DNA from: Candidatus Jacksonbacteria bacterium
GTDB lineage: Bacteria; Patescibacteriota; Patescibacteriia; UBA9629; GWA2-43-13
Direction: 5' to 3'
DNA: 37,314 nucleotides
Assembly: GCA_018698735.1 (NCBI GenBank)
Contig: JABIPD010000035.1
Span: 1 to 37,314 of the forward strand
Shown here: positions 5,076 through 34,227 of the stretch, one piece after another
Layout of the letters: each line of letters begins with the position of its first letter
Numbering within the stretch: the stretch's first letter is position 1
Notes under the pieces: model-generated
Told to the model about the DNA's origin: nothing
Database searches by the model: none
The model's input: the letters and a program-made list of their open reading frames with translations, nothing else
Translations under genes and position numbers: made by a program

Positions 5076-6341
5076 TTACAATCTTCCAATTCCAATATAA
5101 TTCCAGCCTATACTCTTCATTCCCTCTTTGTCTAAAAGATTTTTTGCATCTACAATGACCGGAGTAGATACTATCGATTTCAGCTTAGCCCAATCATACT
5201 CTTTAAATTCTTCCCATTCTGTGGCAATCACCACGCATTCAGAATCTTCTATGCATTCTTCAACTGTATCTGTTGCCTCTGGCAGATTCCGTACTTCAGG
5301 ATCATACGCCTTTACAACAGCCCCCTGGGCCTTTAATTTTTCTATCAAATAAATAGCTGGAGATTCTCGAGTGTCATCGGTATCTCCCTTAAACGCGATT
5401 CCTAGTATAGCTATCTTTTCACCTTTAACACCAACTTTACATGCCTCTATAATTTTTTTTAAAACAAATTCTCTTTGAGTATTGTTTACTTCTATCGTCG
5501 CCCTTAAAAGTTGAAACGTATAATCGTTCTCGCCTGCCAATGAAGAAAGAGCTCTTACATCTTTCGGAAAACAACTGCCACCATAGCCTATACCGGCTTT
5601 TAAAAATTCTTTTCCTATACGAGGATCGAGCCCAATGCCAGTAGCTATATCGTCTACATCTGCGCTAATTTCTTCACATACACGGGCTACTTCGTTTATA
5701 AAAGAGATTTTTGTAGCCAAAAATGCATTAGCAGCATACTTGGTAAGCTCTGAGCTTTCCCACTGCATTGGAACTTTGGGGCAATCCCATATATTGAGCA
5801 ATTCTTCCAATACTTGATTATTCTTCCCATCTTCTGTGCCTAATACAATTCTATCTGGATTTTTAAAATCCGAAACCGCCTTTCCTTCTCTTAAAAACTC
5901 TGGTAATGAAACAACTTCAAAACCATTACCAAGTTTTTCTTTTGCCTTTCTGGCTGTACCCACAGGAACGGTTGATTTGTTTATTACGAACACACCCCCT
6001 GGCCCCCTCTTAATAGAGGGGGAAGATTTAGTTGTCTGCTTTATTTGATCTATCACATGCCAATAAGCCTTCATGTCTGGAGCTCCGTCCTCCAGCGGGG
6101 GAGTACCAACACAAACAATATATACATCCGCCCTTTCGAGCAGAGAAGTGAATATCAGCTTCTCTTTATTTTTCTGCACAAGCTCTTTTAACCCAGGTTC
6201 GTAGAATGGCACTTCTCCCCTCTTAAGACTTTCAATTTTTTCCGTATTAACATCTACACACGTAATATCAAAACCAGCGTCCGCAAAACACACGCCTGTT
6301 ACAAGTCCAACATAACCTGTTCCTATAATGGCAATATTCAT
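5076..6341 (-). CDS. ugd: UDP-glucose 6-dehydrogenase (nucleotide-sugar dehydrogenase family)
   Basis: ORF 5076..6377. The likely start is ATG 6341 (MNIAIIGTGYVGLVTG Rossmann motif). The catalytic-Cys signature GYGGSCFPKD is present. Confidence 0.9.
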   Translation of the reverse strand: MNIAIIGTGYVGLVTGVCFADAGFDITCVDVNTEKIESLKRGEVPFYEPGLKELVQKNKEKLIFTSLLERADVYIVCVGTPPLEDGAPDMKAYWHVIDQIKQTTKSSPSIKRGPGGVFVINKSTVPVGTARKAKEKLGNGFEVVSLPEFLREGKAVSDFKNPDRIVLGTEDGKNNQVLEELLNIWDCPKVPMQWESSELTKYAANAFLATKISFINEVARVCEEISADVDDIATGIGLDPRIGKEFLKAGIGYGGSCFPKDVRALSSLAGENDYTFQLLRATIEVNNTQREFVLKKIIEACKVGVKGEKIAILGIAFKGDTDDTRESPAIYLIEKLKAQGAVVKAYDPEVRNLPEATDTVEECIEDSECVVIATEWEEFKEYDWAKLKSIVSTPVIVDAKNLLDKEGMKSIGWNYIGIGRL

Positions 6342-6407
6342 AAACAAATATTCACAAAGCTCTAAAACATTGGACATTACATTTTGTATTTCTTTAGAGT
6401 TTAGGGT

Positions 6408-7328
6408 TTAGTGCTTAGATTTTTTTTCACTCCACCACTCCCATGTTTTCGCCAGGCCATCTTCTATCGAAACGCTCGAACTCCATCCCCACTCTTTAGC
6501 TTTATCTGAATTAAGAACACTCCTAACTACTTCATCTTGAGTTTTTTCTTGTGTAATCGTAAGTGCCTTCCTTGAGACGCCTTGAAGCATTTTTATAACA
6601 TTATTAAGTTGAGTTTCGCCACCTGTCCCAATATTAAAAATTTCGTATTGAGCGGATTGATCCAAAGCTTTAAGATTTGCTTTTACTATATCTTCTACAT
6701 ATACAAAATCTCGTGTCTGGTTGCCATCTCCATTTAATATAAACTCTTCATCATCTTTTAATGCCTTGCAGATTATTGCCACAACTCCACCACCATCATG
6801 CGGCTGATGTGGACCATATACATTGGCGTATCTTAATAGAGTAACAGCTGCCTGCTTATTTGCATGGAAATATTCGTTCAAAATAACCTCTGCCCTTTTT
6901 TTAGATTCTCCATACGGAGAAGTTGGCATTAACGGAGAATCTTCTGGGGTAGGAATTACTTCTGGGTCACCGTATATAGCGCCGCCACTAGATGCAAACA
7001 CCACTTTTTGTGGCTTTAAAATATCTAACAATAGTTTCGTTGCTTCTGTGTTTATTGCAAACGTCTCTTCCGGTTTTTTTAAACTGTCTGGAACAGAAAT
7101 TTGCGCAGCTAAGTGAATAAGAGCTTCTGGGTTTTGCTCTTTTTTAACTTTTTCTAGAACAGTTACATCACGAATGTCGGCATTATAAAAAGACACTCCA
7201 CTGGGAATATTGTCTTTAAATCCATGGCTTAAATTATCTATAACAGAAACGGTATGCCCAGCTTTTAAACAGGCACTAACCGTGTGAGACCCGATAAATC
7301 CAGCTCCTCCAGTAATACAAACATTCAT
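6408..7328 (-). CDS. NAD-dependent epimerase/dehydratase (GalE-like extended SDR)
   Basis: ORF 6408..7469, but residues 1-47 run through a REP element and a promoter arm. The real start is ATG 7328 (MNVCITGGAGFIGSH). YxxxK is present as YGESKKRAE. Confidence 0.85.
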   Translation of the reverse strand: MNVCITGGAGFIGSHTVSACLKAGHTVSVIDNLSHGFKDNIPSGVSFYNADIRDVTVLEKVKKEQNPEALIHLAAQISVPDSLKKPEETFAINTEATKLLLDILKPQKVVFASSGGAIYGDPEVIPTPEDSPLMPTSPYGESKKRAEVILNEYFHANKQAAVTLLRYANVYGPHQPHDGGGVVAIICKALKDDEEFILNGDGNQTRDFVYVEDIVKANLKALDQSAQYEIFNIGTGGETQLNNVIKMLQGVSRKALTITQEKTQDEVVRSVLNSDKAKEWGWSSSVSIEDGLAKTWEWWSEKKSKH

Positions 7329-7330
7329 AG

Positions 7331-7370
7331 AGTAATCCCGAATATACAAATCAAGTACAAATATACGAAT
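7331..7370 (-). promoter_or_regulatory. 40-bp promoter-bearing arm, copy A (TCGTAT-N16-TATATT), 12 nt from ATG 7328
   Basis: Minus strand reads attcgtatatttgtacttgatttgtatattcgggattact. It is 35/39 identical to copy D2. Confidence 0.55.
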
Positions 7371-7387
7371 TGTAAAATTTTTTAGTA

Positions 7388-8968: not shown

Positions 8969-8998
8969 ATCTTATTGCATATTGAAGCTATGTTTTTC

Positions 8999-9039
8999 CT
9001 ATTTGTATATTTGAACTTGATTTGTATATTCGCGATTAG
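8999..9039 (+). promoter_or_regulatory. Promoter-bearing arm, copy C. It points antisense into the 3' end of the S8 gene
   Basis: ctatttgtatatttgaacttgatttgtatattcgcgattag is 37/40 identical to D2 and ends directly at the S8 stop codon (9040-9042). Confidence 0.4.
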
Positions 9040-11352
9040 TTACCCTCCTAGTTGCACCGCTTTTCTCAGTGCTTTGCTAAAGACAAAAAATTGTTGAAGT
9101 AAATTTCCTGTGCTATTTACTATTTGTACCTGCGGACCGCCTCCGTCTTGTGGGACAGCAAAAATCTCATCGAAGCCATCGTTATTCGTATCCACAGCCA
9201 TACCGCTCAAGCCCGTTCGAAGGCCTGGTACAAATGCTGTAATTTCTTTTTGAAGATTCCCTGAGCTATCGAGCAGCTTTATCGCAGGCGTTTGCCGAGG
9301 AGCAGGATACACAAGAAGCATTTCGCTTTCAAAGCCTTCAAATAATCCAGAGGATAGTGTCATTCCTTTTACAAAGGCAATATCTGATTTTGGAAGAGCC
9401 TCTACTCCACCGAAGGCATTATATATGCGAAGCCCAAATTCTCTGGACCTTGATGCCAAAGCTGCTATTTCGTATATACCATTATTATCTTTATCTAAAA
9501 CTGTTATATCTACCCCAAGCCTACTTGATTCATCGCCAGCAAAAAACTGACTTGTAAGTTCGCCTGTTTCTCTAAATACTCGAATCATTGGTCCGCCGCC
9601 TTTTCCAGCAGCAACAATAATATCATCTTTCCCATTTCCGGTGACATCTGCCGATGCTAAGTTTAATCCTATGCGTGTTGCTTCTGGAAAACCTAAGAAA
9701 GACGAAATCATATTGCCCTGCTGATCAAAAATACGAATTTCGGGGAGGGCACTACTTGCAGGTGCGGTGATTATTTCTTGTACTCCGTCGTTGTCTACAT
9801 CGCCTAACACGACATTCACACCGGCTTTCATTTCTTTGTCGTATGCTAAAAATTCATGCTGCAATACCCCACCATAAGACCAGAGCCTAACCCATGGCTC
9901 AGCCCCTTTGGCAGATGCAGCAACAAAATATGAAGATGAAGAACTTTTCGCTTTTCTTTTTATCGCAGCTGCCTGAAAAACGGACACAGGGGCGAATTTT
10001 TTAATAGAAGAAAGTGTTTCTGCTATATTTAATCTCCCAAATCCAAGCTTACCTATCATATCTTGATTTTGAGCTACAACTGAATCGGAATTATAAATAA
10101 TGTAATCGTAAATTTCTTTTACCGATAAGCCTGGAGCATAACTTTTCACCAAGGCTGCCGCTCCGCTCACCATAGGTGCTGCAAACGACGTTCCGTTCCA
10201 TCCTCCGCTATAGGGCTTTTGCAAATCTGGGATACTTGCATTCCAAATTTGTGTGCTATAAATATTTTCTCCAGGCGCAACCAAATCTACACACGTTTTA
10301 CCAAAACTCGAAAATTCCGAGCGACGGTCTCTTTCGTTAACCGAGGCTACTCCTAGAATCCAATTTTTTCCGGATTTTTTTTCGTCTAAACAGCCAGGAA
10401 AAAGAGGCGTTACATCTAAATCACCGATCCCCTCAGATTCCGTATCTCCATCGTTTCCAACTGCTGCAACGATTACAACTCCGGCATCGTAGGCGTCTTT
10501 TATCGTTGCTTTTAATATATCGTCACTTAAGTGCCCAACAAAACTCATATTAATAACATCTGCGCCATTCTCCTTTGCGTACAATATTGCTTTTACAACA
10601 TCGAGTGTTGTTCCGTGCCCAAGGCCATTCAGAGCTTTAAGTCCCATTATCTGAACTTTATGAGAAATACCCGAAACACCAAGCGTGTTGTTTCCGCTTG
10701 CACCAATAATACCTGCAACAACCGTACCATGAGTAAGTCCCTCTATAGTGTAGCCCTTGCTATCTAATTTAGCTTCGGGGTGATACGTATTATGATTAAA
10801 ATCCCAACCATTTCTGTCGTCTACATATCCATTGTTGTCGTCATCTATTCCGTTGTTGGGTATCTCGTCTTCATTCATCCATATGTTCATTCGTAAGTCT
10901 GGATGGTCTATATCTACCCCCGTATCTATTACCGCGACGATAACGTCCTTGCTTCCTGTTGTAATATCCCAGGCTTCGAATGCTTTAATTTGTTTAAGAT
11001 AATGTTGTTCCGATGAAAATCTATCATTAACCGTCTGAGTAGCAACAGAAAAATTCTCAACATTGTTTGTGTTATATTGAACGCCTCGAGCAGATTTTAG
11101 CTCTTGTGGCTGATATGCAAAATTTGGTTGAACTAACTCAACACCTCTTTGCGACTGCCAATGCAAAATAGCATCTTCTTCAGATGCTATAGCCGAATTA
11201 TAATAGCGGAGCTCTGGAAATGGATTGTTGTGGTATTTAACGAGCAATTCTTTGTAATTAGAAGCAGCCGTATATGCTGGGAATCCAGAGATACTCGCTA
11301 GCGCAAATACAATCACTATAAAAATTTTCAAGCCATTTAAATGCCTTTTCAT
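9040..11352 (-). CDS. Secreted subtilisin-like serine protease (S8) with C-terminal FG-GAP/VCBS-type repeats
   Basis: Signal peptide MKRHLNGLKIFIVIVFALASISGFPAYTAA. Catalytic triad motifs VAVIDTGVDIDHPDL, HGTVVAGIIGA and GTSFAAPMVSGAAAL. Repeats include DVDNDGVQEI, DVTGNGKDDIIVAAGKGGGP and DTNNDGFDEIFAVPQDGGGP. Confidence 0.9.
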   Translation of the reverse strand: MKRHLNGLKIFIVIVFALASISGFPAYTAASNYKELLVKYHNNPFPELRYYNSAIASEEDAILHWQSQRGVELVQPNFAYQPQELKSARGVQYNTNNVENFSVATQTVNDRFSSEQHYLKQIKAFEAWDITTGSKDVIVAVIDTGVDIDHPDLRMNIWMNEDEIPNNGIDDDNNGYVDDRNGWDFNHNTYHPEAKLDSKGYTIEGLTHGTVVAGIIGASGNNTLGVSGISHKVQIMGLKALNGLGHGTTLDVVKAILYAKENGADVINMSFVGHLSDDILKATIKDAYDAGVVIVAAVGNDGDTESEGIGDLDVTPLFPGCLDEKKSGKNWILGVASVNERDRRSEFSSFGKTCVDLVAPGENIYSTQIWNASIPDLQKPYSGGWNGTSFAAPMVSGAAALVKSYAPGLSVKEIYDYIIYNSDSVVAQNQDMIGKLGFGRLNIAETLSSIKKFAPVSVFQAAAIKRKAKSSSSSYFVAASAKGAEPWVRLWSYGGVLQHEFLAYDKEMKAGVNVVLGDVDNDGVQEIITAPASSALPEIRIFDQQGNMISSFLGFPEATRIGLNLASADVTGNGKDDIIVAAGKGGGPMIRVFRETGELTSQFFAGDESSRLGVDITVLDKDNNGIYEIAALASRSREFGLRIYNAFGGVEALPKSDIAFVKGMTLSSGLFEGFESEMLLVYPAPRQTPAIKLLDSSGNLQKEITAFVPGLRTGLSGMAVDTNNDGFDEIFAVPQDGGGPQVQIVNSTGNLLQQFFVFSKALRKAVQLGG

Positions 11353-11377: not shown

Positions 11378-11965
11378 TTATTTTTGATAATACTTATCCT
11401 GTGGCCATTTTATTGGGTTCATACCAATATATTCACGATGGTTTTTAAGATCTTCGTCGTTACGAATAATATGGTCATAAAATCGTGGTTGCCATTGGAA
11501 TGATGATCCGTGATTAGCGCGAATTTGTTTGGTTGAAACAATTTTTATTTGTTTAATAATATCACCAAGAGTCGATCTGTAGAGACGCTTTGGTAAAGCG
11601 TCTTCTTGTTTTTGTTGATCAAGACGCATCACCGATGCGTCTCTACGATCGGACATATTTCGTTCGGTATTCATCGGTAAAACATCATCATACGGACCAA
11701 TATGAATAATAACATGTACATGATTCGGCATAACAACAAAACTATCAATCAAAATATTCGTTCTTACCTCTTCTGTCTTTTTGATTTCCTTTTCAACAAT
11801 CTCACCGACCTCAGTCAGTACTACTTCATCGTCAATTATATTTGATAAAACACATTTCATATCCTTCACACACCATGTGACAAAGTAAAATCCTTCAGAC
11901 GAATAATCATAATGCTGATATCGAGAAGAATTAACTTTATAGGTATTTTTGTATAATTCAGACAT
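11378..11965 (-). CDS. rayT: REP-associated tyrosine transposase-like protein (RAYT, IS200-like Y1 HUH), paralogue 1
   Basis: HUH motif MPNHVHVIIHI and Tyr motif WQPRFYDHIIRNDEDL..YIGMNPIKW. An extended -10 (TGaTAATAT, 11980-11972) lies 6 nt from the ATG. Confidence 0.85.
   Translation of the reverse strand: MSELYKNTYKVNSSRYQHYDYSSEGFYFVTWCVKDMKCVLSNIIDDEVVLTEVGEIVEKEIKKTEEVRTNILIDSFVVMPNHVHVIIHIGPYDDVLPMNTERNMSDRRDASVMRLDQQKQEDALPKRLYRSTLGDIIKQIKIVSTKQIRANHGSSFQWQPRFYDHIIRNDEDLKNHREYIGMNPIKWPQDKYYQK
11579..11646. repeat. GTAG-REP doublet (REPIN-like) inside the RAYT1 coding sequence
   Basis: gtagagacgctttggtaaagcgtct, a 17-bp spacer, then aagacgcatcaccgatgcgtctctac. It is read in frame as RRDASVMRLDQQKQEDALPKRLY. 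Confidence 0.8.
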
Positions 11966-11982
11966 GAATACATATTATCAAT

Positions 11983-12050
11983 GTAGCGACTCTTTGGTAA
12001 AGCGCCTCCTTGCTTTTGTTAATAAAGACGCATCACCGATGCGTCTCTAC
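11983..12050. repeat. GTAG-REP doublet, intergenic copy 18 bp upstream of the RAYT1 ATG
   Basis: The left arm is degenerate (gtagcgactctttggtaaagcgcct). The right arm is identical to the in-ORF copies, and the spacer is similar to that of the RAYT1 in-ORF copy. Confidence 0.75.
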
Positions 12051-12064
12051 AAAAAACACAGATG

Positions 12065-12097
12065 AAATAAACGGCTCATCGTGTGAGCCGTTTATTT
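12065..12097. terminator. Bidirectional hairpin/terminator after the TPR gene, upstream of RAYT1
   Basis: 14-bp stem aaataaacggctca / tgagccgtttattt with a 5-nt loop. A near-identical hairpin lies at 22161-22195. Confidence 0.6.
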
Positions 12098-13002: not shown

Positions 13003-13061
13003 GCCTGCCGAGGCCTGGCACTGGCGGGCAGGCCCCTACCCCCTCTTAAGCAAAGAGGGGG
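13003..13061. repeat. GC-rich REP-like hairpins (CCCCCTCT / AGAGGGGG family)
   Basis: Stems gcctgcc / ggcaggc (13003-13033) and ccccctct / agaggggg (13039-13061). The same hairpin type occurs at 34147-34169, with a degenerate copy at ~12811-12850. Confidence 0.6.
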
Positions 13062-13159: not shown

Positions 13160-16100
13160 TTATCTGCTCAATACTTGAGTAGATGTTGGCAAGTTCTTAA
13201 CCTTTAGACCATTGGTCCAGTCAGTTGTGTTAGACGAGTGACTTTGGTCTGAAACGTCTGACCATACGAATGTTGCTGCTGCAGCAACTCCGCCTGTGAC
13301 AGGAAGGTTAATATCTGTTTCACCTGCGGCAACAGTAGAACTGACTGCATATCCATCTGTAGTTACTGTAATGGTATATGTAATATTCTTACTTGCTGAA
13401 TCGCTATAAGCCTCAGCTGTAGTATTGTCACCAGCTGTTGGAGCAACTCTGATAAGACTATCGGTACTATCTGTACATTCAATGAATCGTACAGTTTCGA
13501 TACCTTCACTAACAGCAACAACAGTTGTACCGTTGGCTGCATACATAACACAGGTTGCACCACCGTCAATATGTGTTCCAGTTACAGCTACAACGTCATT
13601 ACTGCCGTCAGAAGCCACAACAATAGTTTGCCCAGTGGTTACGCCAAATCCTTTTGTGATAAGACCATTACCTTCACCTGTAGTAAAGGCAGCGCTTGTA
13701 CTTCCAGCAACTGTCATTGAGTCTTGAGCTGTCAAACGGATGTCGTTTGCTGTAACAGTTGCACCTGCATCTGTGTCAGCGTAGTACACTGCTGAGTTTG
13801 TGTTAATCGGGAACGCAGCAGTCTGAGCAGCGAATGCTGAAGGCTGTGTGATTTGAACAGTGAGGTTGTCTCCAGCTGCTGGAGCACCGGCAATAGTAAC
13901 ACGCAATTCGTAGGTCTTAGAACCGCTAATTTGCTGTTCTGCGTCTGCTACGAAGTGGATTGCACCAGCTGTGTCGTTATCATCTTCAACACTTCCAGTA
14001 AACACGCCTGAACCAGCAATCTCGTTGTTATCTGAATCCCAGAGAGTTGGAGAGGCTAATGTGTCTGTACCACTAATACTCTTGGTTACCGTAAACAGTA
14101 ACTTCTGCCATGCAATAGTTCCTGTTCCATTTGTACCAACTGTAAACTTAGATACAACTTGTGTTCCAGTGTTAAGCACTGTTGTAGGTAATGTTACATT
14201 TGTAATGGTAGGAACAGCCTTGTACACGTACATTACATTACCAGGAGGGTTTGCTTGTGTTTCTGTAACAGCAGCAGAAGTACCTTGTGAGTTACGTGCA
14301 GTAGCAGCGGTAACAGTTGTAAGGACAGAAGCAGCAGAAGTACCTGCGCCAAATCCTACAGCACTTAACTGAAGCTCGATATCTATAACTTTTGTAGTGT
14401 TTGCAGCTACAGCAATAGAGACATCGTTAAAGCTTAAGTCTGTTGCAGGCTGAGTAGCAACAACAGTAGAGCCATCCTTAAGGATAACATTTGATACAGC
14501 GGTTGTGTCAGCAAGAGTTACAGTAATGTCTGTAATAGTGTAAGAGTCATTTGTAGTAGTAAACTTCCATGAACCTGTTTTCACGGTTCCTGAATCGTCT
14601 ACTAACTGTGAGGTAGGTGTTGAAGCGTCGATGTCAACAGCAATAGTTGCGGTACCAATTGTAATGGTTTGACCAGCAATAACACCTGTATCTGCTGATT
14701 GAGCAGAAGCTACGGTTGTACCAGTAACCTGTAAAGATGCGACTACAGTATCTGTAGCAACAAAGTCAGATCCGAGAGAACCATATACTTCAACAGCTAT
14801 CGATTCGTTCTTTGCAATGGTAATACTTGGAGACCAAGTATTAGTAGCAGCAGTGACAGATGATTTTACAGCAACTTGGCTATCGCCATACTTGATCCAC
14901 ACATCTGTTACGTCTGTTACATCTGCAGTTCCTACAACAGCAACATCTAAGTCGAAGGAAGTTACATTAATAGCCTCAGTTGAATCACCAGAGAGTTGGA
15001 ATGAAGCAATCTTAAGCGCAGTAATTGGATCCACAACTGTCTGATTAGGATAGTTTGTAGTTTTTGCCATTGCTAGTGAACCAGATGAAATAGTTAAACT
15101 ATTTGCAGCCTGGGTAGCTGATGGAACGTTAATTCCAGTAATAGACACAGCTGGAACAGCGTTTGCGCTTCCAAGTACTAAAGCAGCTTGAAGAGCAGTT
15201 ACTGCTGCGCTTGCAATCTGGTCTGTATCTTCGTTGTCGTACATATCTGCACGAGCTTCGATAGTTACAGTAGTACCCGATTTAACGGTGTAGTTTGTAG
15301 TAAAGCTTGTACCACTAGCATAGCTGTTTACAGCTGGAATAGTAGTAGTAGAACCTGCTTGTACTCCGTCGAACATAACACGACCGCTTCGGAAGCTAAC
15401 TTCTGAATCTGTAGCACCAGTTACATCGATACCAACTGTTAAGGTTTCAATTTTAATATCTTCACCATAAGCAGTTACGTCCCATGTTCCTAATACTGCA
15501 TCGGATGCTCCTAGAACTAAGTTAGCTGAAGGAGAATCTGCTCGTTTAACAACAGTTGTTGTCCCTGCGTTAACGGTAAATGCACTAGGACCAAATGGGA
15601 ATGTTCCAGTAGCGAGTACACCTACACCATAAGAAGAGTCAGTTACATCGATATCATAAGCTCCTCGAAGAGATAATCGAACAGTTCTACCTGAACCGCC
15701 TGTTACGTCTCCAATAACTTTAAGTGTTCGAGCACCTGTCTTTAAGTCGGTGTTTGTTGCGAAAGTAACATAACCGTTAGCATCGAGGCTATCGGTTGAT
15801 GCAATTTCTACTCCATCTGCAAGAAGTCGGAAGTTTCCGATATCTGCTGTTTTGATAGAACCAATCTGGCGTAATGCTAAACGAGTCAATGATACTGTTC
15901 GTTGAGCAATAGTAGAAGTACCCTGCCATAAAGTAATATCAACTCCTGGGTCTGTATTACCAGAACCAGTTGCAGAACTTAATGCATTGGTTGCAAGTGT
16001 TGCAGTTGCAACGCTATGTAACGCACCGTTTACTGGGAATGTACCAGAAACAGTGTCTCCTGTGTCGTTTGTAGTAATGTCGCTTGCAGAAACAATGCTC

Positions 16101-17224: not shown

Positions 17225-17657
17225 AAGAATTTCGGTTTATTAATTACCAACTCGCGAAGAACCTGGCTAAAAGGATCCGGGGCTTTTTAACCGACTCGAT
17301 AAACGAGGTCGACCTTTATGTTAAAAAGTTTCGGTATTTGAGCTCCTTGGCCATATTAAACGACGAGCGGTTGAGAGATATAAGCACAGAGGCATGCCTC
17401 TTATCTTTAACTTACTTTTTGAACCTAGGTTATTGTAAGAAAAAGACTTGAAAGATTGATTACCCGAAGGTGTCACAATCAGTAAGGCCCTATGCTTGCC
17501 CGTGGGAACAAATAATTGCCCCACAAGTAAGCATAGAAGCCAATAGAACCTTTGTACCTATCTCTATACGAACTTGAATAAGTGAGTATTCAATGATACT
17601 CGCATAAACTTTTCATATAATGACTAAAGTTTATGCCAATATCATTATTTTAAACTA
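17225..17657 (-). promoter_or_regulatory. Candidate ~430-nt structured 5' leader of the surface protein gene (if transcribed from arm D1)
   Basis: Several stems are visible: an 11-bp stem 17602-17612/17626-17636, a 6-bp stem 17584-17589/17596-17601, a composite stem 17490-17497/17529-17536 with 17502-17506/17520-17524, and the palindrome agaggcatgcctct at 17388-17401. No convincing ORF is present. Confidence 0.35.
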
Positions 17658-17763
17658 ATCGCTAATATACGAATCAGAAACGAATATACAAATAAACTAA
17701 TTTTTCATGATTTCCAGAGCTTCTATTTGTATATTTGTGCTTGATTTGTATATTCGTGATTAG
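17655..17763. mobile_element. Gene-less 109-bp MITE-like unit: arms D1 (17655-17694, minus) and D2 (17724-17763, plus) back to back with a 29-bp filler
   Basis: Read on the minus strand, D1 is tatttgtatattcgtttctgattcgtatattagcgattag. D2 is tatttgtatatttgtgcttgatttgtatattcgtgattag. The two are 33/40 identical as inverted repeats, and each carries an outward-reading TTGTAT-N16-TATATT. Confidence 0.5.
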
Positions 17764-17898
17764 TCAATTACACCCGCAAATACTACTAGATTTTGCGAAG
17801 AAAGTCAATGCTTTTTAGCGGATTTTTTGCTCTTATTTTGCTAAAAAGTGTATACTCTATCAAAACAGCTTAAAACAAGGACTTTTAAGCTGTTTTTT
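17760..17898 (+). ncRNA. Candidate orphan transcript (~140 nt) from arm D2 to the bidirectional terminator: either an sRNA or an mRNA for a 21-aa hydrophobic peptide
   Basis: The D2 -10 hexamer lies at 17749-17754. Hairpins lie at 17775-17797 (cgcaaa/tttgcg) and 17811-17848 (ctttttagc/gctaaaaag), followed by the terminator stem 17862-17896 with a T-run on the plus strand. A small ORF at 17808..17873 encodes MLFSGFFALILLKSVYSIKTA. Confidence 0.35.
17862..17896. terminator. Bidirectional intrinsic terminator (end of the anti-sigma gene on minus, end of the orphan unit on plus)
   Basis: 14-bp stem aaaacagcttaaaa / ttttaagctgtttt with a 7-nt loop. It is flanked by an A-run and a T-run. Confidence 0.75.
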
Positions 17899-19931: not shown

Positions 19932-20058
19932 ACTAAAACCTTACGCGGTAACGTATTTCCTCATAATAACCCATTTTAGTATATCATACACCCTAAAAGC
20001 AACATGGCGAATCATCTCGTTTTCAATACAAAGACTCGAGAGAGTGTGCCATTTTTTT

Positions 20059-20125
20059 GTAGAGACGCCTTGGTAAAGCGTCTTATTTTGAGATATTTCA
20101 AGACGCATCACCGATGCGTCTCTAC
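20059..20125. repeat. GTAG-REP doublet, intergenic copy between lexA and the sigma gene
   Basis: gtagagacgccttggtaaagcgtct, a 16-bp spacer, then aagacgcatcaccgatgcgtctctac. The right arm is identical to the other three copies. Confidence 0.8.
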
Positions 20126-20795: not shown

Positions 20796-20799
20796 ATGA

Positions 20800-20916
20800 G
20801 TAGTCGCTAATATACAAATAGATCACAAATATACAAATTCGAGTAAATATATGAACAAGAAAGTAACCCTGCTTTCAATTTGTATATTTGTGCTTGATTC
20901 GTATATTCGAGAACAG
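20800..20916. mobile_element. Gene-less 117-bp MITE-like unit: arms E1 (20800-20839, minus, 13 nt from the lexA ATG) and E2 (20877-20916, plus) with a 37-bp filler
   Basis: Read on the minus strand, E1 is aatttgtatatttgtgatctatttgtatattagcgactac. E2 is aatttgtatatttgtgcttgattcgtatattcgagaacag. Confidence 0.5.
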
Positions 20917-20955
20917 TTTCATTATACCAAACAAATACCGCACACACAAAACACG

Positions 20956-21053
20956 TATGGGGATAACTCTAATTAAATCAAAAAATAAAAACACGAAATA
21001 AGAAATTCAAAATTGCAATACACATTGTCTTAGACGTTTCGAGAATTATATAT
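20956..21053 (+). repeat. AT-rich dispersed repeat, copy 1 (~100 bp)
   Basis: tatggggataactctaattaaatcaaaaaataaaa...gacgtttcgagaattatatat is ~85% identical to 32806-32908. An inverted partner (attttgaatttg, 21059-21070) pairs with 21004-21014. Confidence 0.7.
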
Positions 21054-21587: not shown

Positions 21588-22145
21588 TTATTTAAAATAT
21601 TTGTCCTGAGACCATTTTATTGGGTTGATTCCGATATAATCACGATGGGACTGAAGGTCATGATCGTTACGGATGATATGATCATAAAATCGTGACTGCC
21701 ACTGAAAGGAAGGATTGTGATTGTTACGAATTTGTTTTGTTGAGACAATTTTTATTTGTTTGATAATATTACCAAGATTTGCCGTGTAGAGACGCTTTGG
21801 TAAAGCGTCTCCTTTTTTTTGATTATTAAGACGCATCACCGATGCGTCTCTACAGGAAGAGTCGAACATAGGACCTATATGAATAATAACATGCACGTGA
21901 TTTGGCATCACAACAAAAGAATCTACACGAACATTTTTTCTCACCTCTTCTGTTTTTTTAATCTCTTTTTCAACAATCTCTCCAATTAAACTTAATACTA
22001 TTTTATCATCCACAACCTTAGACAACACGCAGTTCATATTTTTTACACACCATGTTACAAAATAGAACCCCTCAGAAGAATAGTCATACTGGGAATAACG
22101 AGCCGATGGGATTCGGTATTGGTTATTGTATAGAAATTGATTCAT
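21588..22145 (-). CDS. rayT: REP-associated tyrosine transposase-like protein (RAYT), paralogue 2
   Basis: Same motifs as paralogue 1 (MPNHVHVIIHI, WQSRFYDHIIRNDHDL). A perfect extended -10 (TGtTATAAT, 22160-22152) lies 6 nt from the ATG. Confidence 0.85.
   Translation of the reverse strand: MNQFLYNNQYRIPSARYSQYDYSSEGFYFVTWCVKNMNCVLSKVVDDKIVLSLIGEIVEKEIKKTEEVRKNVRVDSFVVMPNHVHVIIHIGPMFDSSCRDASVMRLNNQKKGDALPKRLYTANLGNIIKQIKIVSTKQIRNNHNPSFQWQSRFYDHIIRNDHDLQSHRDYIGINPIKWSQDKYFK
21786..21853. repeat. GTAG-REP doublet inside the RAYT2 coding sequence
   Basis: Both arms are identical (25/25 and 26/26) to the RAYT1 in-ORF copy, while the spacer differs. It is read as CRDASVMRLNNQKKGDALPKRLY. Confidence 0.8.
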
Positions 22146-22160
22146 ATTTTTATTATAACA

Positions 22161-22195
22161 AAAATAAACGGCTCATATCGTGAGCCGTTTATTTT
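22161..22195. terminator. Hairpin/terminator after the 3376-aa gene, abutting the RAYT2 promoter
   Basis: 15-bp stem aaaataaacggctca / tgagccgtttatttt. It is near-identical to 12065-12097. Confidence 0.6.
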
Positions 22196-22211
22196 ATTAC
22201 TAACTTCCCAC

Positions 22212-22272
22212 GTAGAAACGAGGTCCCCAGACACATTTCTCGCATGGTCGGGGCACGTAACCCCGTTTCTAC
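22212..22272. repeat. GTAG-REP doublet, GTAGAAACG variant
   Basis: gtagaaacg (22212-22220) pairs with cgtttctac (22264-22272). An inner hairpin cggggcacgtaaccccg lies at 22249-22265. Confidence 0.6.
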
Positions 22273-32805: not shown

Positions 32806-32908
32806 TATGGGGATAACTTTAATTAAATTAAAAAATAAAAGCACTAAACAAGAAACAAATTCAAAATCACAATATACAAGTCTCTAAACGTTTCGAGCAT
32901 AATATATA
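32806..32908 (+). repeat. AT-rich dispersed repeat, copy 2
   Basis: tatggggataactttaattaaattaaaaaataaaa...aacgtttcgagcataatatat aligns with 20956-21053. Confidence 0.7.
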
Positions 32909-33931: not shown

Positions 33932-34170
33932 TCCCTCCTTCGAGGGACAGGCTCTGTCTTTTGATCGTCATCCCCGACCCCGATCGGGGATCCATGCTCT
34001 TTTTATTTCTTCAGCCTATTGGATTCCTCTGCCCTTTGTCCGTCATCCTCAGCTTGACTGGGGATCCATGTGCTTCTTTCATGAGGCCATGGATTCCCGA
34101 TCGGGGTCGGGAATGACTGCAAAGGAATTTTTTCTTTCGTTTTATCCCCCCTCTTTGCATAAGAGGGGGT
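33932..34170. repeat. Cluster of REP-like hairpin elements
   Basis: Three copies of cgtcat(c/t)cc..ggg(g/a)atccatg lie at 33966-33995 and 34041-34070 (direct) and 34088-34117 (inverted), with a core palindrome ccccgatcgggg. Two further hairpins lie at 33933-33946 (ccctc/gaggg) and 34147-34169 (ccccctctt/aagaggggg). Confidence 0.75.
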
Positions 34171-34227
34171 TAGGGGGAGTTTTGCCCGTCATCGTCATGG
34201 TTATTGTCATCATGCCTTTCTGCCCGT

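Follow-up and report, generated by a model that had tools for sequence, protein, structure and literature searches.

Two diverged RAYT paralogues

The window, i.e. the whole 37,314-nt stretch of DNA that was analysed, contains two RAYT paralogues, RAYT1 and RAYT2, which carry the same REP type and lie within 10 kb of each other. The two genes and the key codons of RAYT2 are located as follows:

11378..11965, minus strand: RAYT1 coding sequence, 195 aa, with which RAYT2 is compared
21588..22145, minus strand: RAYT2 coding sequence, 185 aa plus stop codon, a predicted HuH-Y1 REP-associated tyrosine transposase
21891..21899, minus strand: HuH motif codons, H83-V-H85 within MPNHVHVIIH, aligning to the HuH of 4ER8
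21636..21638, minus strand: codon of the predicted catalytic tyrosine, Y170 in HRDYIGINP, an invariant column

Both proteins match Pfam Y1_Tnp (PF01797) with 27.3–27.8 bits, above the cutoff of 23. The best NCBIfam match is the equivalog REP_Tyr_transpos (NF047646), with 66.9 and 71 bits; these scores fall below the curated cutoff of 80, which we read as the mark of a divergent subgroup rather than of non-members. The NCBIfam model transpos_IS200 gives 17 bits against a cutoff of 55. E. coli TnpA_REP (PDB 4ER8) is the top match both by sequence (E 6.8e-10) and by fold (E 1e-7), and the top 30 PDB fold matches of the AF2 model of RAYT2 (pLDDT 86.6) are all TnpA_REP or IS200/IS605 TnpA. In a 43-sequence alignment, H83, H85 and Y170 are invariant, as are the residues of WQ-RFYDHIIR, and Y170 lies opposite Tyr115 of 4ER8, within VDYIYINP, by residue count on the alignment. 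RAYT2 has the HuH on a β strand, the single tyrosine on a C-terminal helix and the fold that characterize the HuH-Y1 superfamily. Homologues were recovered from Cyanobacteria, Bacteroidota, Chlorobiota and Chloroflexota with E values of 1e-27 to 1e-42.

RAYT2 and RAYT1 share 71% protein identity with one 10-aa gap, and 72.9% nucleotide identity outside the repeat doublet described below. The sequence-only reading had taken RAYT2 for a RAYT paralogue diverged from RAYT1 and differing from it by 10 aa in length, and both the alignment and the top match to 4ER8 support this. It had also proposed a dN/dS comparison, which by the Nei-Gojobori method gave dN/dS = 0.08, with pS saturated at 0.70; purifying selection on the two paralogues is strong. 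All dS comparisons bearing on the order of duplication and speciation were saturated.

From HuH to Tyr, RAYT2 spans 85 aa and RAYT1 95 aa. In the AF2 model, a low-confidence loop at residues ~91–122 (pLDDT 49–65, core >90) is located between the strand 83–90 and the helix 124–142, and it is highly variable in length and sequence among homologues. In this model, the 22 repeat-encoded residues protrude, with low confidence, from a TnpA_REP fold that is otherwise modelled confidently.

In-frame REPINs and related repeats in the window

REPINs were reportedly defined by Bertels and Rainey in 2011 as REP doublets that form a hairpin. The in-gene doublets, the extragenic copies and a further inverted repeat are listed below:

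11578..11646: in-frame REPIN of RAYT1, same doublet type
21785..21853: in-frame REPIN of RAYT2, two inverted GTAG-footed REP hairpins plus spacer, repeat family D7
21786..21810, plus strand (GTAG foot): REP arm GTAGAGACGCTTTGGTAAAGCGTCT, identical to 11579–11603
21811..21827: A/T-rich doublet spacer, differing from the RAYT1 spacer at 5/17 positions
21828..21853, minus strand (GTAG foot): REP arm GTAGAGACGCATCGGTGATGCGTCTT, identical to 11621–11646
11982..12050: extragenic REPIN between a terminator-like hairpin and the RAYT1 start, D7, 90% identity
20058..20125: extragenic REPIN between LexA-like and sigma-factor genes
22212..22272: degenerate GTAGAAACG inverted doublet, a 61-nt imperfect inverted repeat, −16.5 kcal/mol, z −4.5

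The RAYT2 REPIN encodes residues ~98–119, C-RDASVMRL-NNQKKG-DALPKRLY, in the β3-αC loop. Comparison of the two genes gave identical runs of 26/26 and 26/26 nt at the arms; no other identical run in the gene exceeds 17 nt. At the arms, 21786–21809 (plus) and 21830–21853 (minus) agree with 11579–11602 and 11623–11646 at every position. Synonymous differences were found at 52 of 113 conserved degenerate codons outside the doublet versus 0 of 15 in the arms. Chance was ruled out as the source of this identity, with P between ~1e-4, assuming a conserved peptide, and ~1e-7 on raw nucleotide identity. Conservation at the peptide level was ruled out by the synonymous sites together with the use of two reading frames among homologues (frames 0 and 1 are both used, while frame 2 would give a TAG stop). 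A recent conversion of the whole doublet between the paralogues was likewise excluded by the 29% divergence of the spacer and by the divergence of the flanks. Three points of the sequence-only reading are thereby borne out: the arms are identical in a gene that has otherwise diverged, the spacer and flanks included; the force responsible acts on the DNA and not on the peptide, the synonymous sites of the arms being untouched against a saturated background; and a conversion tract covering the entire doublet, which it had named as a refuting observation, is excluded.

As RNA, the two in-ORF doublets fold at −37 kcal/mol (RAYT2, z −7.4) and −42 kcal/mol (z −8.4). As DNA, the 68–69-nt doublets fold at −19 to −23 kcal/mol (z −6.6 to −7.4), and the degenerate flank doublet at −15.1 kcal/mol (z −4.3). 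Inverted REPs, a short spacer, a long hairpin fold and multiple copies, the properties of a REPIN, are all present. The plus-foot arm at 21786..21810 and the T-run that follows it are terminator-like on the antisense strand in both paralogues. A convergent gene ends 1 nt from the RAYT2 stop codon, and the downstream neighbour of RAYT1 is co-directional.

Doublets of the GTAGAGACGC type occur four times in 37 kb versus 0 expected by chance, two in genes, one in the RAYT1 flank and one intergenic; within the 37-kb window, the RAYTs are accordingly associated with GT[AG]G-footed palindromes that are also found elsewhere in the genome. The in-ORF element is the same repeat as the extragenic copies of this genome. 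The arms of the 11982–12050 copy have 3 mismatches near 11983 and none near 12050, and, by eye, ~14/17 positions of its spacer agree with the in-ORF spacer of RAYT1. The 20058–20125 copy has 1 arm mismatch and an unrelated spacer. These two extragenic copies of the GTAGAGACG doublet had escaped the sequence-only reading.

The GTAGAAACG doublet that had been noted just upstream of RAYT2 is a real, imperfect inverted repeat. It is single-copy in the window, and among 97 loci the only one with it was L081, a contig from this genome; with no further copies in the window and the 97 loci, it was rejected as a second REPIN family. One of its arms, GTAGAAACGGGGTTAC..CCCCG, resembles by eye the sister genome REP GTAGAGACGGGGTTAACCCCGTC, and the doublet probably represents the remains of a REPIN of a different or earlier type. 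A metagenome scan for the REPIN population of the source genome turned up 11 contigs, none of them from that genome and none with a RAYT motif, and 5 of the 11 contained related extragenic doublets with a compensated arm.

Homologues, sister genomes and the upstream region

Of 82 homologous genes, 57 carry a GT[AG]G hairpin with a perfect stem in the β3-αC loop, and ~25 lack one while the surrounding motifs are still conserved. Double-foot REPs number 46 in ~33 kb of loop sequence versus 33 (≤2 stem mismatches) in 1.2 Mb elsewhere, a ~50-fold enrichment in density. The perfection of the palindromes did not differ significantly between in-loop and extragenic copies across 80 loci (41/46 vs 25/33). 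Extragenic matches to the in-ORF REP have a 23-fold higher density within its own locus than in the other loci, and multiple tandem REPs are present in the loop at five loci (L012, L014, L033, L045 and L063). The very high phylum-wide occupancy of this loop is higher than a purely neutral 'tolerated insertion' would obviously predict.

The sister genome L082 is syntenic with the window and carries GTAGAGACGGGGTTAACCCCGTCTCTAC both inside the ORF and upstream, in the flank. Its positional orthologue of RAYT1 contains a different REP, in a different frame and as a single 'double-foot' unit, and the upstream flank has changed in step. Cross-searches found the window REP type absent from L082 and the L082 type absent from the window. 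L082 also has a REP in frame inside its UDP-glucose dehydrogenase gene, and the REPIN at 20058–20125 is absent at the orthologous L082 site. With a different REP type in ORF, flank and dehydrogenase gene of L082, we conclude that REPs undergo turnover from genome to genome, and homogenisation inside any one genome. The arms had been described as frozen; on this longer time scale, with a different REP in a different frame in the sister genome, that description fails. In two outgroups (L085 and L086), doublets with compensated stems occur at the same place and in the same frame. The RAYT2 site (site 2) is empty in L082–84 and occupied in both outgroups, and because of this occupancy the empty site in L082 would most simply be read as a loss. 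A recent lineage-specific insertion of RAYT2 was considered and withdrawn on the same ground.

Two further features lie directly upstream of RAYT2:

22152..22160, minus strand: extended −10-like element TGTTATAAT, separated by 6 nt from the ATG at 22145, a putative promoter read from the sequence
22161..22195, minus strand: terminator-like hairpin AAAATAAACGGCTCA...TGAGCCGTTTATTTT downstream of a 3376-aa gene, −15.6 kcal/mol, z −7.8

IS200 has a terminator hairpin at its left end and a stem-loop that occludes the start, and the region upstream of both paralogues had been likened to this layout. The near-identical hairpins in front of the two genes (12065–12097 and 22161–22195) are real, with 14–15-bp stems, ~−15 kcal/mol and z ~−7.8. 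The hairpin at 22161–22195 is a member of a dispersed hairpin repeat, further copies of which are located at 12065–12097, at the orthologous RAYT1 site in L082–84 and in the contigs L088, L095 and L096. Since the RAYT motif was not found in the latter three contigs, the hairpin looks like an ordinary terminator-like repeat, not a RAYT-specific or IS200-like end. The proposed extended −10, with an ATG 6 nt later, holds for RAYT2, for which a consensus scan found no −35 partner; RAYT1 has a weaker box (TGATAATAT or GATAAT) located 6–8 nt before its ATG. No Shine-Dalgarno sequence precedes the RAYT2 ATG, so that the RAYT2 mRNA is likely leaderless. The RNA around each ATG is no more stably folded than its shuffled versions (z −1.1 and +1.2), and the suggested occlusion of the start therefore fails in the absence of a stable structure at either ATG; the layout looks leaderless. 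The likeness to IS200 is weak, the hairpin being a generic repeat and the start codon unoccluded. The bounding hairpins of IS200/IS605 elements and the start-occluding stem-loop of IS200 were not found. We agree with the sequence-only reading that there is no right-end hairpin or second boundary, the stop codon abutting the convergent gene.

Explanations of the in-gene repeat and comparison with known systems

In the explanation that we consider likely, RAYT2 is a predicted functional TnpA_REP of subclass 2.4/group 4 with its own cognate REPIN in frame in the loop, undergoing concerted evolution. Binding, and cleavage and rejoining beside GTAG hairpins, have reportedly been shown for the TnpA_REP enzymes of E. 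coli, Stenotrophomonas and Marinomonas. RAYT2 would similarly bind single-stranded GTAG hairpins, and cleave and rejoin next to them. The enzyme substrate would be the arms only, and the arms would therefore be kept matched to the current REP 'master' sequence of the genome, through repeated REP-level replacement or conversion and/or selection for recognisable hairpins; candidate routes are RAYT-mediated replacement, recombinational gene conversion and purifying selection. The spacer and flanking codons would evolve along with the gene. Between genomes, the REP type is swapped wholesale, and the in-ORF, flanking and dispersed copies of one genome share one type. The pattern is one of concerted evolution, not of freezing. 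The biochemistry of GTAG-hairpin recognition has been described (PMC8266576), and none of the enzymes assayed in that work is from group 4/subclass 2.4.

It is doubtful that the in-ORF hairpin pair is instead a selected cis-acting element, with purifying selection on DNA or RNA keeping the arms identical. Such an element might act through self-recognition that limits its own expression, as a stable mRNA structure throttling translation or mRNA life, as an antisense terminator, or as a protected 'master copy' linking enzyme and repeat. It would find support in the perfect arms against saturated synonymous sites and a drifting spacer, in the RNA folds of the doublets (−37 and −42 kcal/mol), in the 0 mismatches in ~100 nt of in-ORF arms versus 4 in the two extragenic copies of the window, and in the loop occupancy across phyla (57/82 genes, ~50-fold density). 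The antisense terminator-like arm and T-run of both paralogues, with the convergent gene ending 1 nt from the RAYT2 stop, point the same way, but misfit RAYT1 with its co-directional downstream neighbour. Selection is hard to reconcile with the ~25/82 homologues that keep the motifs without a perfect-stem hairpin, with the sister genome having swapped the doublet for a different single REP in another frame, and with the lack of a significant difference in perfection between in-loop and extragenic copies. Furthermore, an unrelated housekeeping gene carries the same REP in frame, which makes coding loops ordinary places for REPs to land. If the in-gene REPIN were a selected component, for example a self-target limiting expression or a master copy for co-inheritance, and not a passenger, this would explain the occupancy of one loop across many phyla together with the perfect arms and the drifting spacer and synonymous sites; we regard this as improbable.

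Independent recent REPIN insertions at one hotspot in each paralogue, with no shared ancestral in-gene doublet, are considerably less probable still. In this lineage, REPs move and insert into coding loops, tandem REPs have accumulated in the loop at the five loci named above, and the REP type at the RAYT1 site (site 1) was replaced between sister genomes, all of which would suit such insertions. The two doublets nevertheless share orientation and frame, and their spacers are related (12/17) to each other and also to that of the RAYT1 flank copy, but not to that of 20058–20125. The doublet at the same place and frame in both outgroups favours inheritance with arm-level homogenisation. We give almost no credence to RAYT2 and its upstream hairpin as an IS200-like autonomous insertion sequence, in which the hairpin would be the left end or terminator and the start would be occluded. 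The presence of the hairpin before both paralogues, the empty site 2 in L082–84 and the fold common to IS200/IS605 TnpA are compatible with it, but the hairpin is generic and occurs where the RAYT motif is absent, the vacant site is more readily explained by a loss given its occupancy in two outgroups, and there is no second end, the convergent gene lying right next to the stop codon. Neither start codon lies in a stable structure, and the best protein matches are to TnpA_REP, with transpos_IS200 at 17 bits.

RAYTs are typically present as one copy per REP type and are not self-mobile, i.e. they are domesticated. RAYT/REPIN is a leading example of a domesticated transposase living with non-autonomous repeats, and the locus bears on the question of how enzyme and repeat stay matched over the long term. 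It is a compact natural experiment in which old paralogues carry identical in-gene arms and in which the in-gene, flanking and dispersed copies of a sister genome have switched together to another repeat type, the in-gene repeat tracking the current repeat family of its genome. The GTAGAGACGC-type hairpins and the two enzymes offer concrete substrates for a group beyond those assayed in PMC8266576.

Like IS200, RAYT2 has a related catalytic fold and an upstream hairpin that could stop read-through. Unlike IS200, it has no element ends and no Shine-Dalgarno sequence to occlude, its start is open and its hairpin generic; the protein has more in common with TnpA_REP than with the TnpA of IS200. 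In-frame GTAG REPs or REP dimers in unrelated genes are known to add ~10–30 residues in loops and linkers (Di Nocera et al. 2013, PMC3733652). The REP in the L082 UDP-glucose dehydrogenase gene is a case of this kind, whereas the RAYT loop, unlike such sporadic insertions, is occupied recurrently across phyla.

The closest system by sequence and fold is E. coli TnpA_REP, of RAYT group 2 (4ER8; Messing et al. 2012, PMC3479197; Corneloup et al. 2021, PMC8266576). Shared features are the WQxRFWEH/RFYDH block, the catalytic Tyr in DYIxxNP, GTAG-footed hairpins, which are substrates in E. coli, and a gene embedded in a 'REPtron' of its own repeats. The E. coli gene differs in having no internal REP, and its REPs have bulged stems in contrast to the perfect stems found here; identity to the RAYTs of the window is ~25%, and the NCBIfam equivalog cutoff is unreached.

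The sequence-only reading had treated the in-ORF hairpins as a curiosity; REPs lying in frame between the HuH and Tyr motifs are in fact already on record as the distinguishing mark of TnpA_REP subclass 2.4 (Quentin et al. 2018, BMC Genomics 19:475, PMC6006769), which corresponds to RAYT group 4 (Bertels et al. 2017, PMC5581495). Subclass 2.4 has a variable insertion between β3 and αC and a median HuH-to-Y distance of 88 aa (PMC6006769), and Cyanobacteria, Bacteroidota, Chlorobiota and Chloroflexota are among the taxa named for the group (PMC6006769, PMC5581495). From shared features and homology, we infer that RAYT1 and RAYT2 belong to subclass 2.4/group 4. Their enlarged HuH-to-Tyr distances of 85 and 95 aa lie on either side of the published median, with the loop insertion likewise between β3 and αC; an in-gene REP is present in both window genes as well as in 57/82 homologues; GT[AG]G-footed REPs, including 'double-foot' forms, are found flanking the gene and in frame within it; and both proteins lack a C-terminal extension. 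The arrangement was thus already published in 2018, and the locus is a clean new example rather than a new kind of element. The in-gene element here differs from the usual single double-foot REP of subclass 2.4 in being an inverted doublet with a spacer. Unlike the published set, the locus comprises two diverged paralogues in one genome, allowing the contrast of arm versus spacer, and its host belongs to an uncultured lineage outside that set.

In-gene arms of the two RAYT paralogues

The two REP-associated tyrosine transposase (RAYT) genes of the window each carry two GTAG-footed hairpin arms in frame, and doublets of this type, overlooked in the sequence-only reading, were also found extragenically.

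RAYT genes and doublets in the window
21588-22145 (-): RAYT2 ORF, 185 aa
11378-11965 (-): RAYT1 ORF, 195 aa
21786-21809 (+): RAYT2 arm GTAGAGACGCTTTGGTAAAGCGTC, exact match to RAYT1 11579-11602
21830-21853 (-): RAYT2 arm GTAGAGACGCATCGGTGATGCGTC, exact match to RAYT1 11623-11646
11982-12050: extragenic REPIN copy, flanked by the upstream hairpin and the start of RAYT1, 3 mismatches in one arm
20058-20125: extragenic REPIN copy between the LexA-like and sigma-factor genes, 1 mismatch, unrelated spacer
22212-22272: GTAGAAACG doublet, imperfect inverted repeat

Each in-ORF arm is a textbook REP: a GTAG tetranucleotide, then a perfectly paired stem of 9-10 bp closed by a 3-nt loop. The two arms are inverted, which makes the unit a 69-nt REPIN/BIME-like doublet. 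Folded as DNA, it forms two hairpins or one long hairpin (-20 to -23 kcal/mol, z about -7); the folding energy of its RNA is -37 to -42 kcal/mol. The spacer of the 11982-12050 copy resembles the in-ORF spacer by eye. Antisense to the RAYT genes, an in-ORF arm with its T-rich spacer scores as intrinsic-terminator-like in both paralogues (21789-21820 and 11582-11613, +); the convergent 146-aa ORF beside RAYT2 is without a terminator of its own.

In a codon alignment of RAYT1 and RAYT2, the longest identical stretches of the gene were the two 26-nt arm runs, followed by one of 17 nt, and the chance expectation of such arm matches in the window is none. Nucleotide identity outside the doublet was 72.9%. 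Synonymous differences affected 52/113 conserved, degenerate codons outside the doublet vs 0/15 in the arms (P about 1e-4 with peptide conservation taken as the null, about 1e-7 from raw identity). The spacer differed at 5/17 positions, a divergence of 29% vs 27% for the rest of the gene, and the arms showed 0 changes in 51 nt. The arm identity, first noticed from the sequence alone together with the differing spacer, is real and far above chance. Since the arms are unchanged while the spacer has diverged about as far as the rest of the gene, the force is arm-specific.

The proteins share 71% identity with one 10-aa gap. Nei-Gojobori analysis gave a saturated pS of 0.70 and a dN/dS of 0.08, so the paralogues are old and both are protein-constrained. 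Both matched Pfam Y1_Tnp above threshold, and their top NCBIfam match, REP_Tyr_transpos, fell under the curated cutoff (67 and 71 bits vs 80). Among solved structures, a 43-homologue profile found solely E. coli TnpA_REP (PDB 4ER8), with the WQxRF(Y/W)(D/E)H block aligned; a manual residue count on this alignment places RAYT2 Y170 (HRDYIGINP) opposite catalytic Tyr115. The HuH motif of RAYT2 is H83 and H85. Its AlphaFold model (mean pLDDT 86.6, core >90) was matched by Foldseek to 4ER8 first, then to ISDra2, IS608 and IS200 TnpA. The REPIN-encoded residues (about 98-119, within loop 91-122) are modelled at pLDDT 49-65; the HuH strand (83-90) precedes them and a long helix (124-142) follows.

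REPs in homologues and related genomes

A homologue scan, limited to one genome per species, yielded 80 loci from many phyla, giving 82 genes with those of the window. A perfect-stem GT[AG]G hairpin lies in the post-HuH loop of 57/82, mostly as a single double-foot REP and in some cases as an inverted doublet like that of the window. The remainder, about 25/82, lack such a hairpin, some retaining decayed versions, so the in-gene element is dispensable for the fold. RAYT loops are about 50x as dense in double-foot REPs as the other 1.2 Mb of sequence, and matches of in-ORF REPs to extragenic copies are 23x denser in their own locus than in other loci. GTAG is read as GTA-GAG (V-E-T...A-S-L) or xGT-AGA (R-D-A...V-S-T); the third frame would make a TAG stop. 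Because the two frames without a stop occur at about the same frequency, the constraint is on DNA and not on peptide. Together with the unchanged arm codons, this upholds the core of the sequence-only reading, which had placed selection or conversion on the hairpins.

By eye, the bases that open the stem of an in-gene REP follow protein clade across many phyla, GTAGAGAC stems pairing with WQxRF[YH]DH proteins and GTAGGGGC stems with WQRNYYEH proteins. The REP inside a gene thus documents which repeat is cognate to its enzyme. In L016 (12123-13001), about 1.5 kb downstream from a Bacteroidales RAYT gene, lies a tandem array with a REP in each unit: six identical copies of the double-foot REP GTAGAGACGCGATGCATCGCGTCTCTAC, spaced about 180 nt apart. 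Extragenic doublets with the window's arm GTAGAGACGCTTTGGTAAAGCGTCTTC occur in three other metagenome contigs (L088, L091, L094), and with a variant arm in two more (L095, L096); in all five the second arm has a compensated stem, GACGTAT...ATACGTC replacing GACGCAT...ATGCGTC.

The sister genome (L082-84, from ENA) shares synteny with the window; their LexA proteins are 91% identical in aa sequence, and host dS is 0.9-1.6. Its 170-aa RAYT1 orthologue keeps the upstream terminator-like hairpin, but its in-ORF repeat is one double-foot REP, GTAGAGACGGGGTTAACCCCGTCTCTAC, read in the alternative frame (VETGLTPSLH). The upstream flank has this REP, with one mismatch, in place of the doublet. Further L082 copies lie at 2483-2510, between the genes for a sigma factor and a DUF5667 protein (10 nt apart in the window), and in frame in UDP-glucose dehydrogenase at 16050-16077 (NCVETGLTPSLQK), whose window orthologue (5076-6377) has no REP. 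The window REPIN 20058-20125 is missing from the orthologous L082 spacer. The L082 type was not found in the window, nor the window type in L082. The arms are therefore not "frozen", contrary to what had been proposed: L082 has another REP type at both the in-ORF and flank sites.

In two outgroup relatives (L085, L086), a doublet sits where it does in the window and is read in the same frame (CRDAPLGRL...DAPTARLY), with compensated stems, e.g. GAGACGCCCC/GGGGCGTCT. REPs or REPINs also overlap the RAYT 3' end or stop codon (L085 548-612, L086 about 1856-1890), the TAG stop in L085 being part of a GTAG foot. The L085 gene adjoins a convergent small ORF and a LexA-like gene, and the L086 gene directly follows a giant gene; both positions match site 2, the genomic site of RAYT2. 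Because site 2 is occupied in both, its emptiness in L082, where a REP-like terminator hairpin is left, is best read as loss. Outside the loop, RAYT1 and RAYT2 share 76% aa identity vs 64-68% to their respective positional orthologues, which suggests past homogenisation in the window lineage.

Concerted evolution and a possible cis-function

Within a genome, one REP type is common to in-gene, flanking and dispersed copies, and between genomes it is replaced at all these places. As judged from these sequence comparisons, the copies form a mobile repeat family that evolves in concert and is not deeply frozen. REP-level replacement or conversion by the resident enzyme, or selection for arms that this enzyme recognises, would keep the arms matched. 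This explanation is the most economical because the GTAG-plus-stem unit is the only one that TnpA_REP enzymes are known to recognise (PMC3479197, PMC8266576); which of these processes acts we infer. It is improbable, though worth naming, that the in-gene hairpin instead has a selected cis-function, as an autoregulatory element, an mRNA structure, an antisense terminator-like signal or a protected master copy: the stable RNA fold and arm-specific identity sit alongside genes without the hairpin and wholesale replacement in the sister genome.

Upstream layout, other repeats and published precedents

The stem-loops noted upstream of both genes (22161-22195 and 12065-12097) were confirmed. However, this hairpin, AAACGGCTCA...TGAGCCGTTT, recurs in contigs L088, L095 and L096, where no RAYT motif was found, and appears to be a generic terminator-like repeat. 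RAYT2 has TGTTATAAT, then 6 nt, then ATG, as had been described; the RAYT1 -10 is weaker, 6-8 nt from ATG, with a possible -35 within the flanking REPIN. The L086 gene has TGCTAAAAT, 6 nt and ATG, with a REP and T-run ahead. A leaderless start is plausible. The proposed IS200-like layout is not supported, and its occluded start fails, because RNA structure does not enclose either start codon (z -1.1 and +1.2). An IS200-type right end is absent at the RAYT loci, in line with the earlier reading, and the RAYT2 stop lies 1 nt from that of the convergent 146-aa ORF.

The doublet at 22212-22272, also noted previously, is a genuine inverted repeat. No second copy was found in any sequence searched; one arm is like the sister genome's REP by eye, and decay of a REPIN of some other type is the probable origin of the doublet. 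Several other repeats were observed in the window.

Other repeats in the window
7327-7377, 8994-9041, 17652-17694/17724-17768, 20797-20839/20873-20919: intergenic AT-rich repeat of roughly 42 nt (ATTTGTATATTTGnGCTTGATTnGTATATTCGnGATTAGT), in close inverted pairs at 17652-17768 and 20797-20919, the latter pair immediately 5' of the LexA-like gene; several operons may share it as an operator or promoter motif
985-2700: tandem repeats, 156-nt period, 60-72% identity, probably coding for a repetitive surface protein; GTAGAAAC matches inside at 1003, 1489 and 1630 are probably not REPs
13033-13061, 34147-34175: CCCCCTCTT..AAGAGGGGG hairpin family, with a lookalike by eye beside the terminator-like hairpin in L095 and L096
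33967-33996/34088-34117: GC-rich inverted pair, 30 nt
20956-21005, 32806-32855: direct repeat, 50 nt, 90% identity, by position upstream of two genes

The novelty implied earlier is not supported, REPs inside RAYT genes having been published for TnpA_Y1 subclass 2.4 (Quentin et al. 2018, PMC6006769). This subclass takes in all 100 sequences that Bertels et al. 2017 had placed in RAYT group 4. Many of its REPs have a "double foot" (GT[AG]G...C[TC]AC), and the in-gene copies were interpreted as tolerated insertions (PMC6006769). An earlier catalogue lists in-frame REPs from unrelated genes (Di Nocera et al. 2013, PMC3733652). To the published class of REP-carrying RAYT genes, the locus adds a new example, and an unusually informative one.
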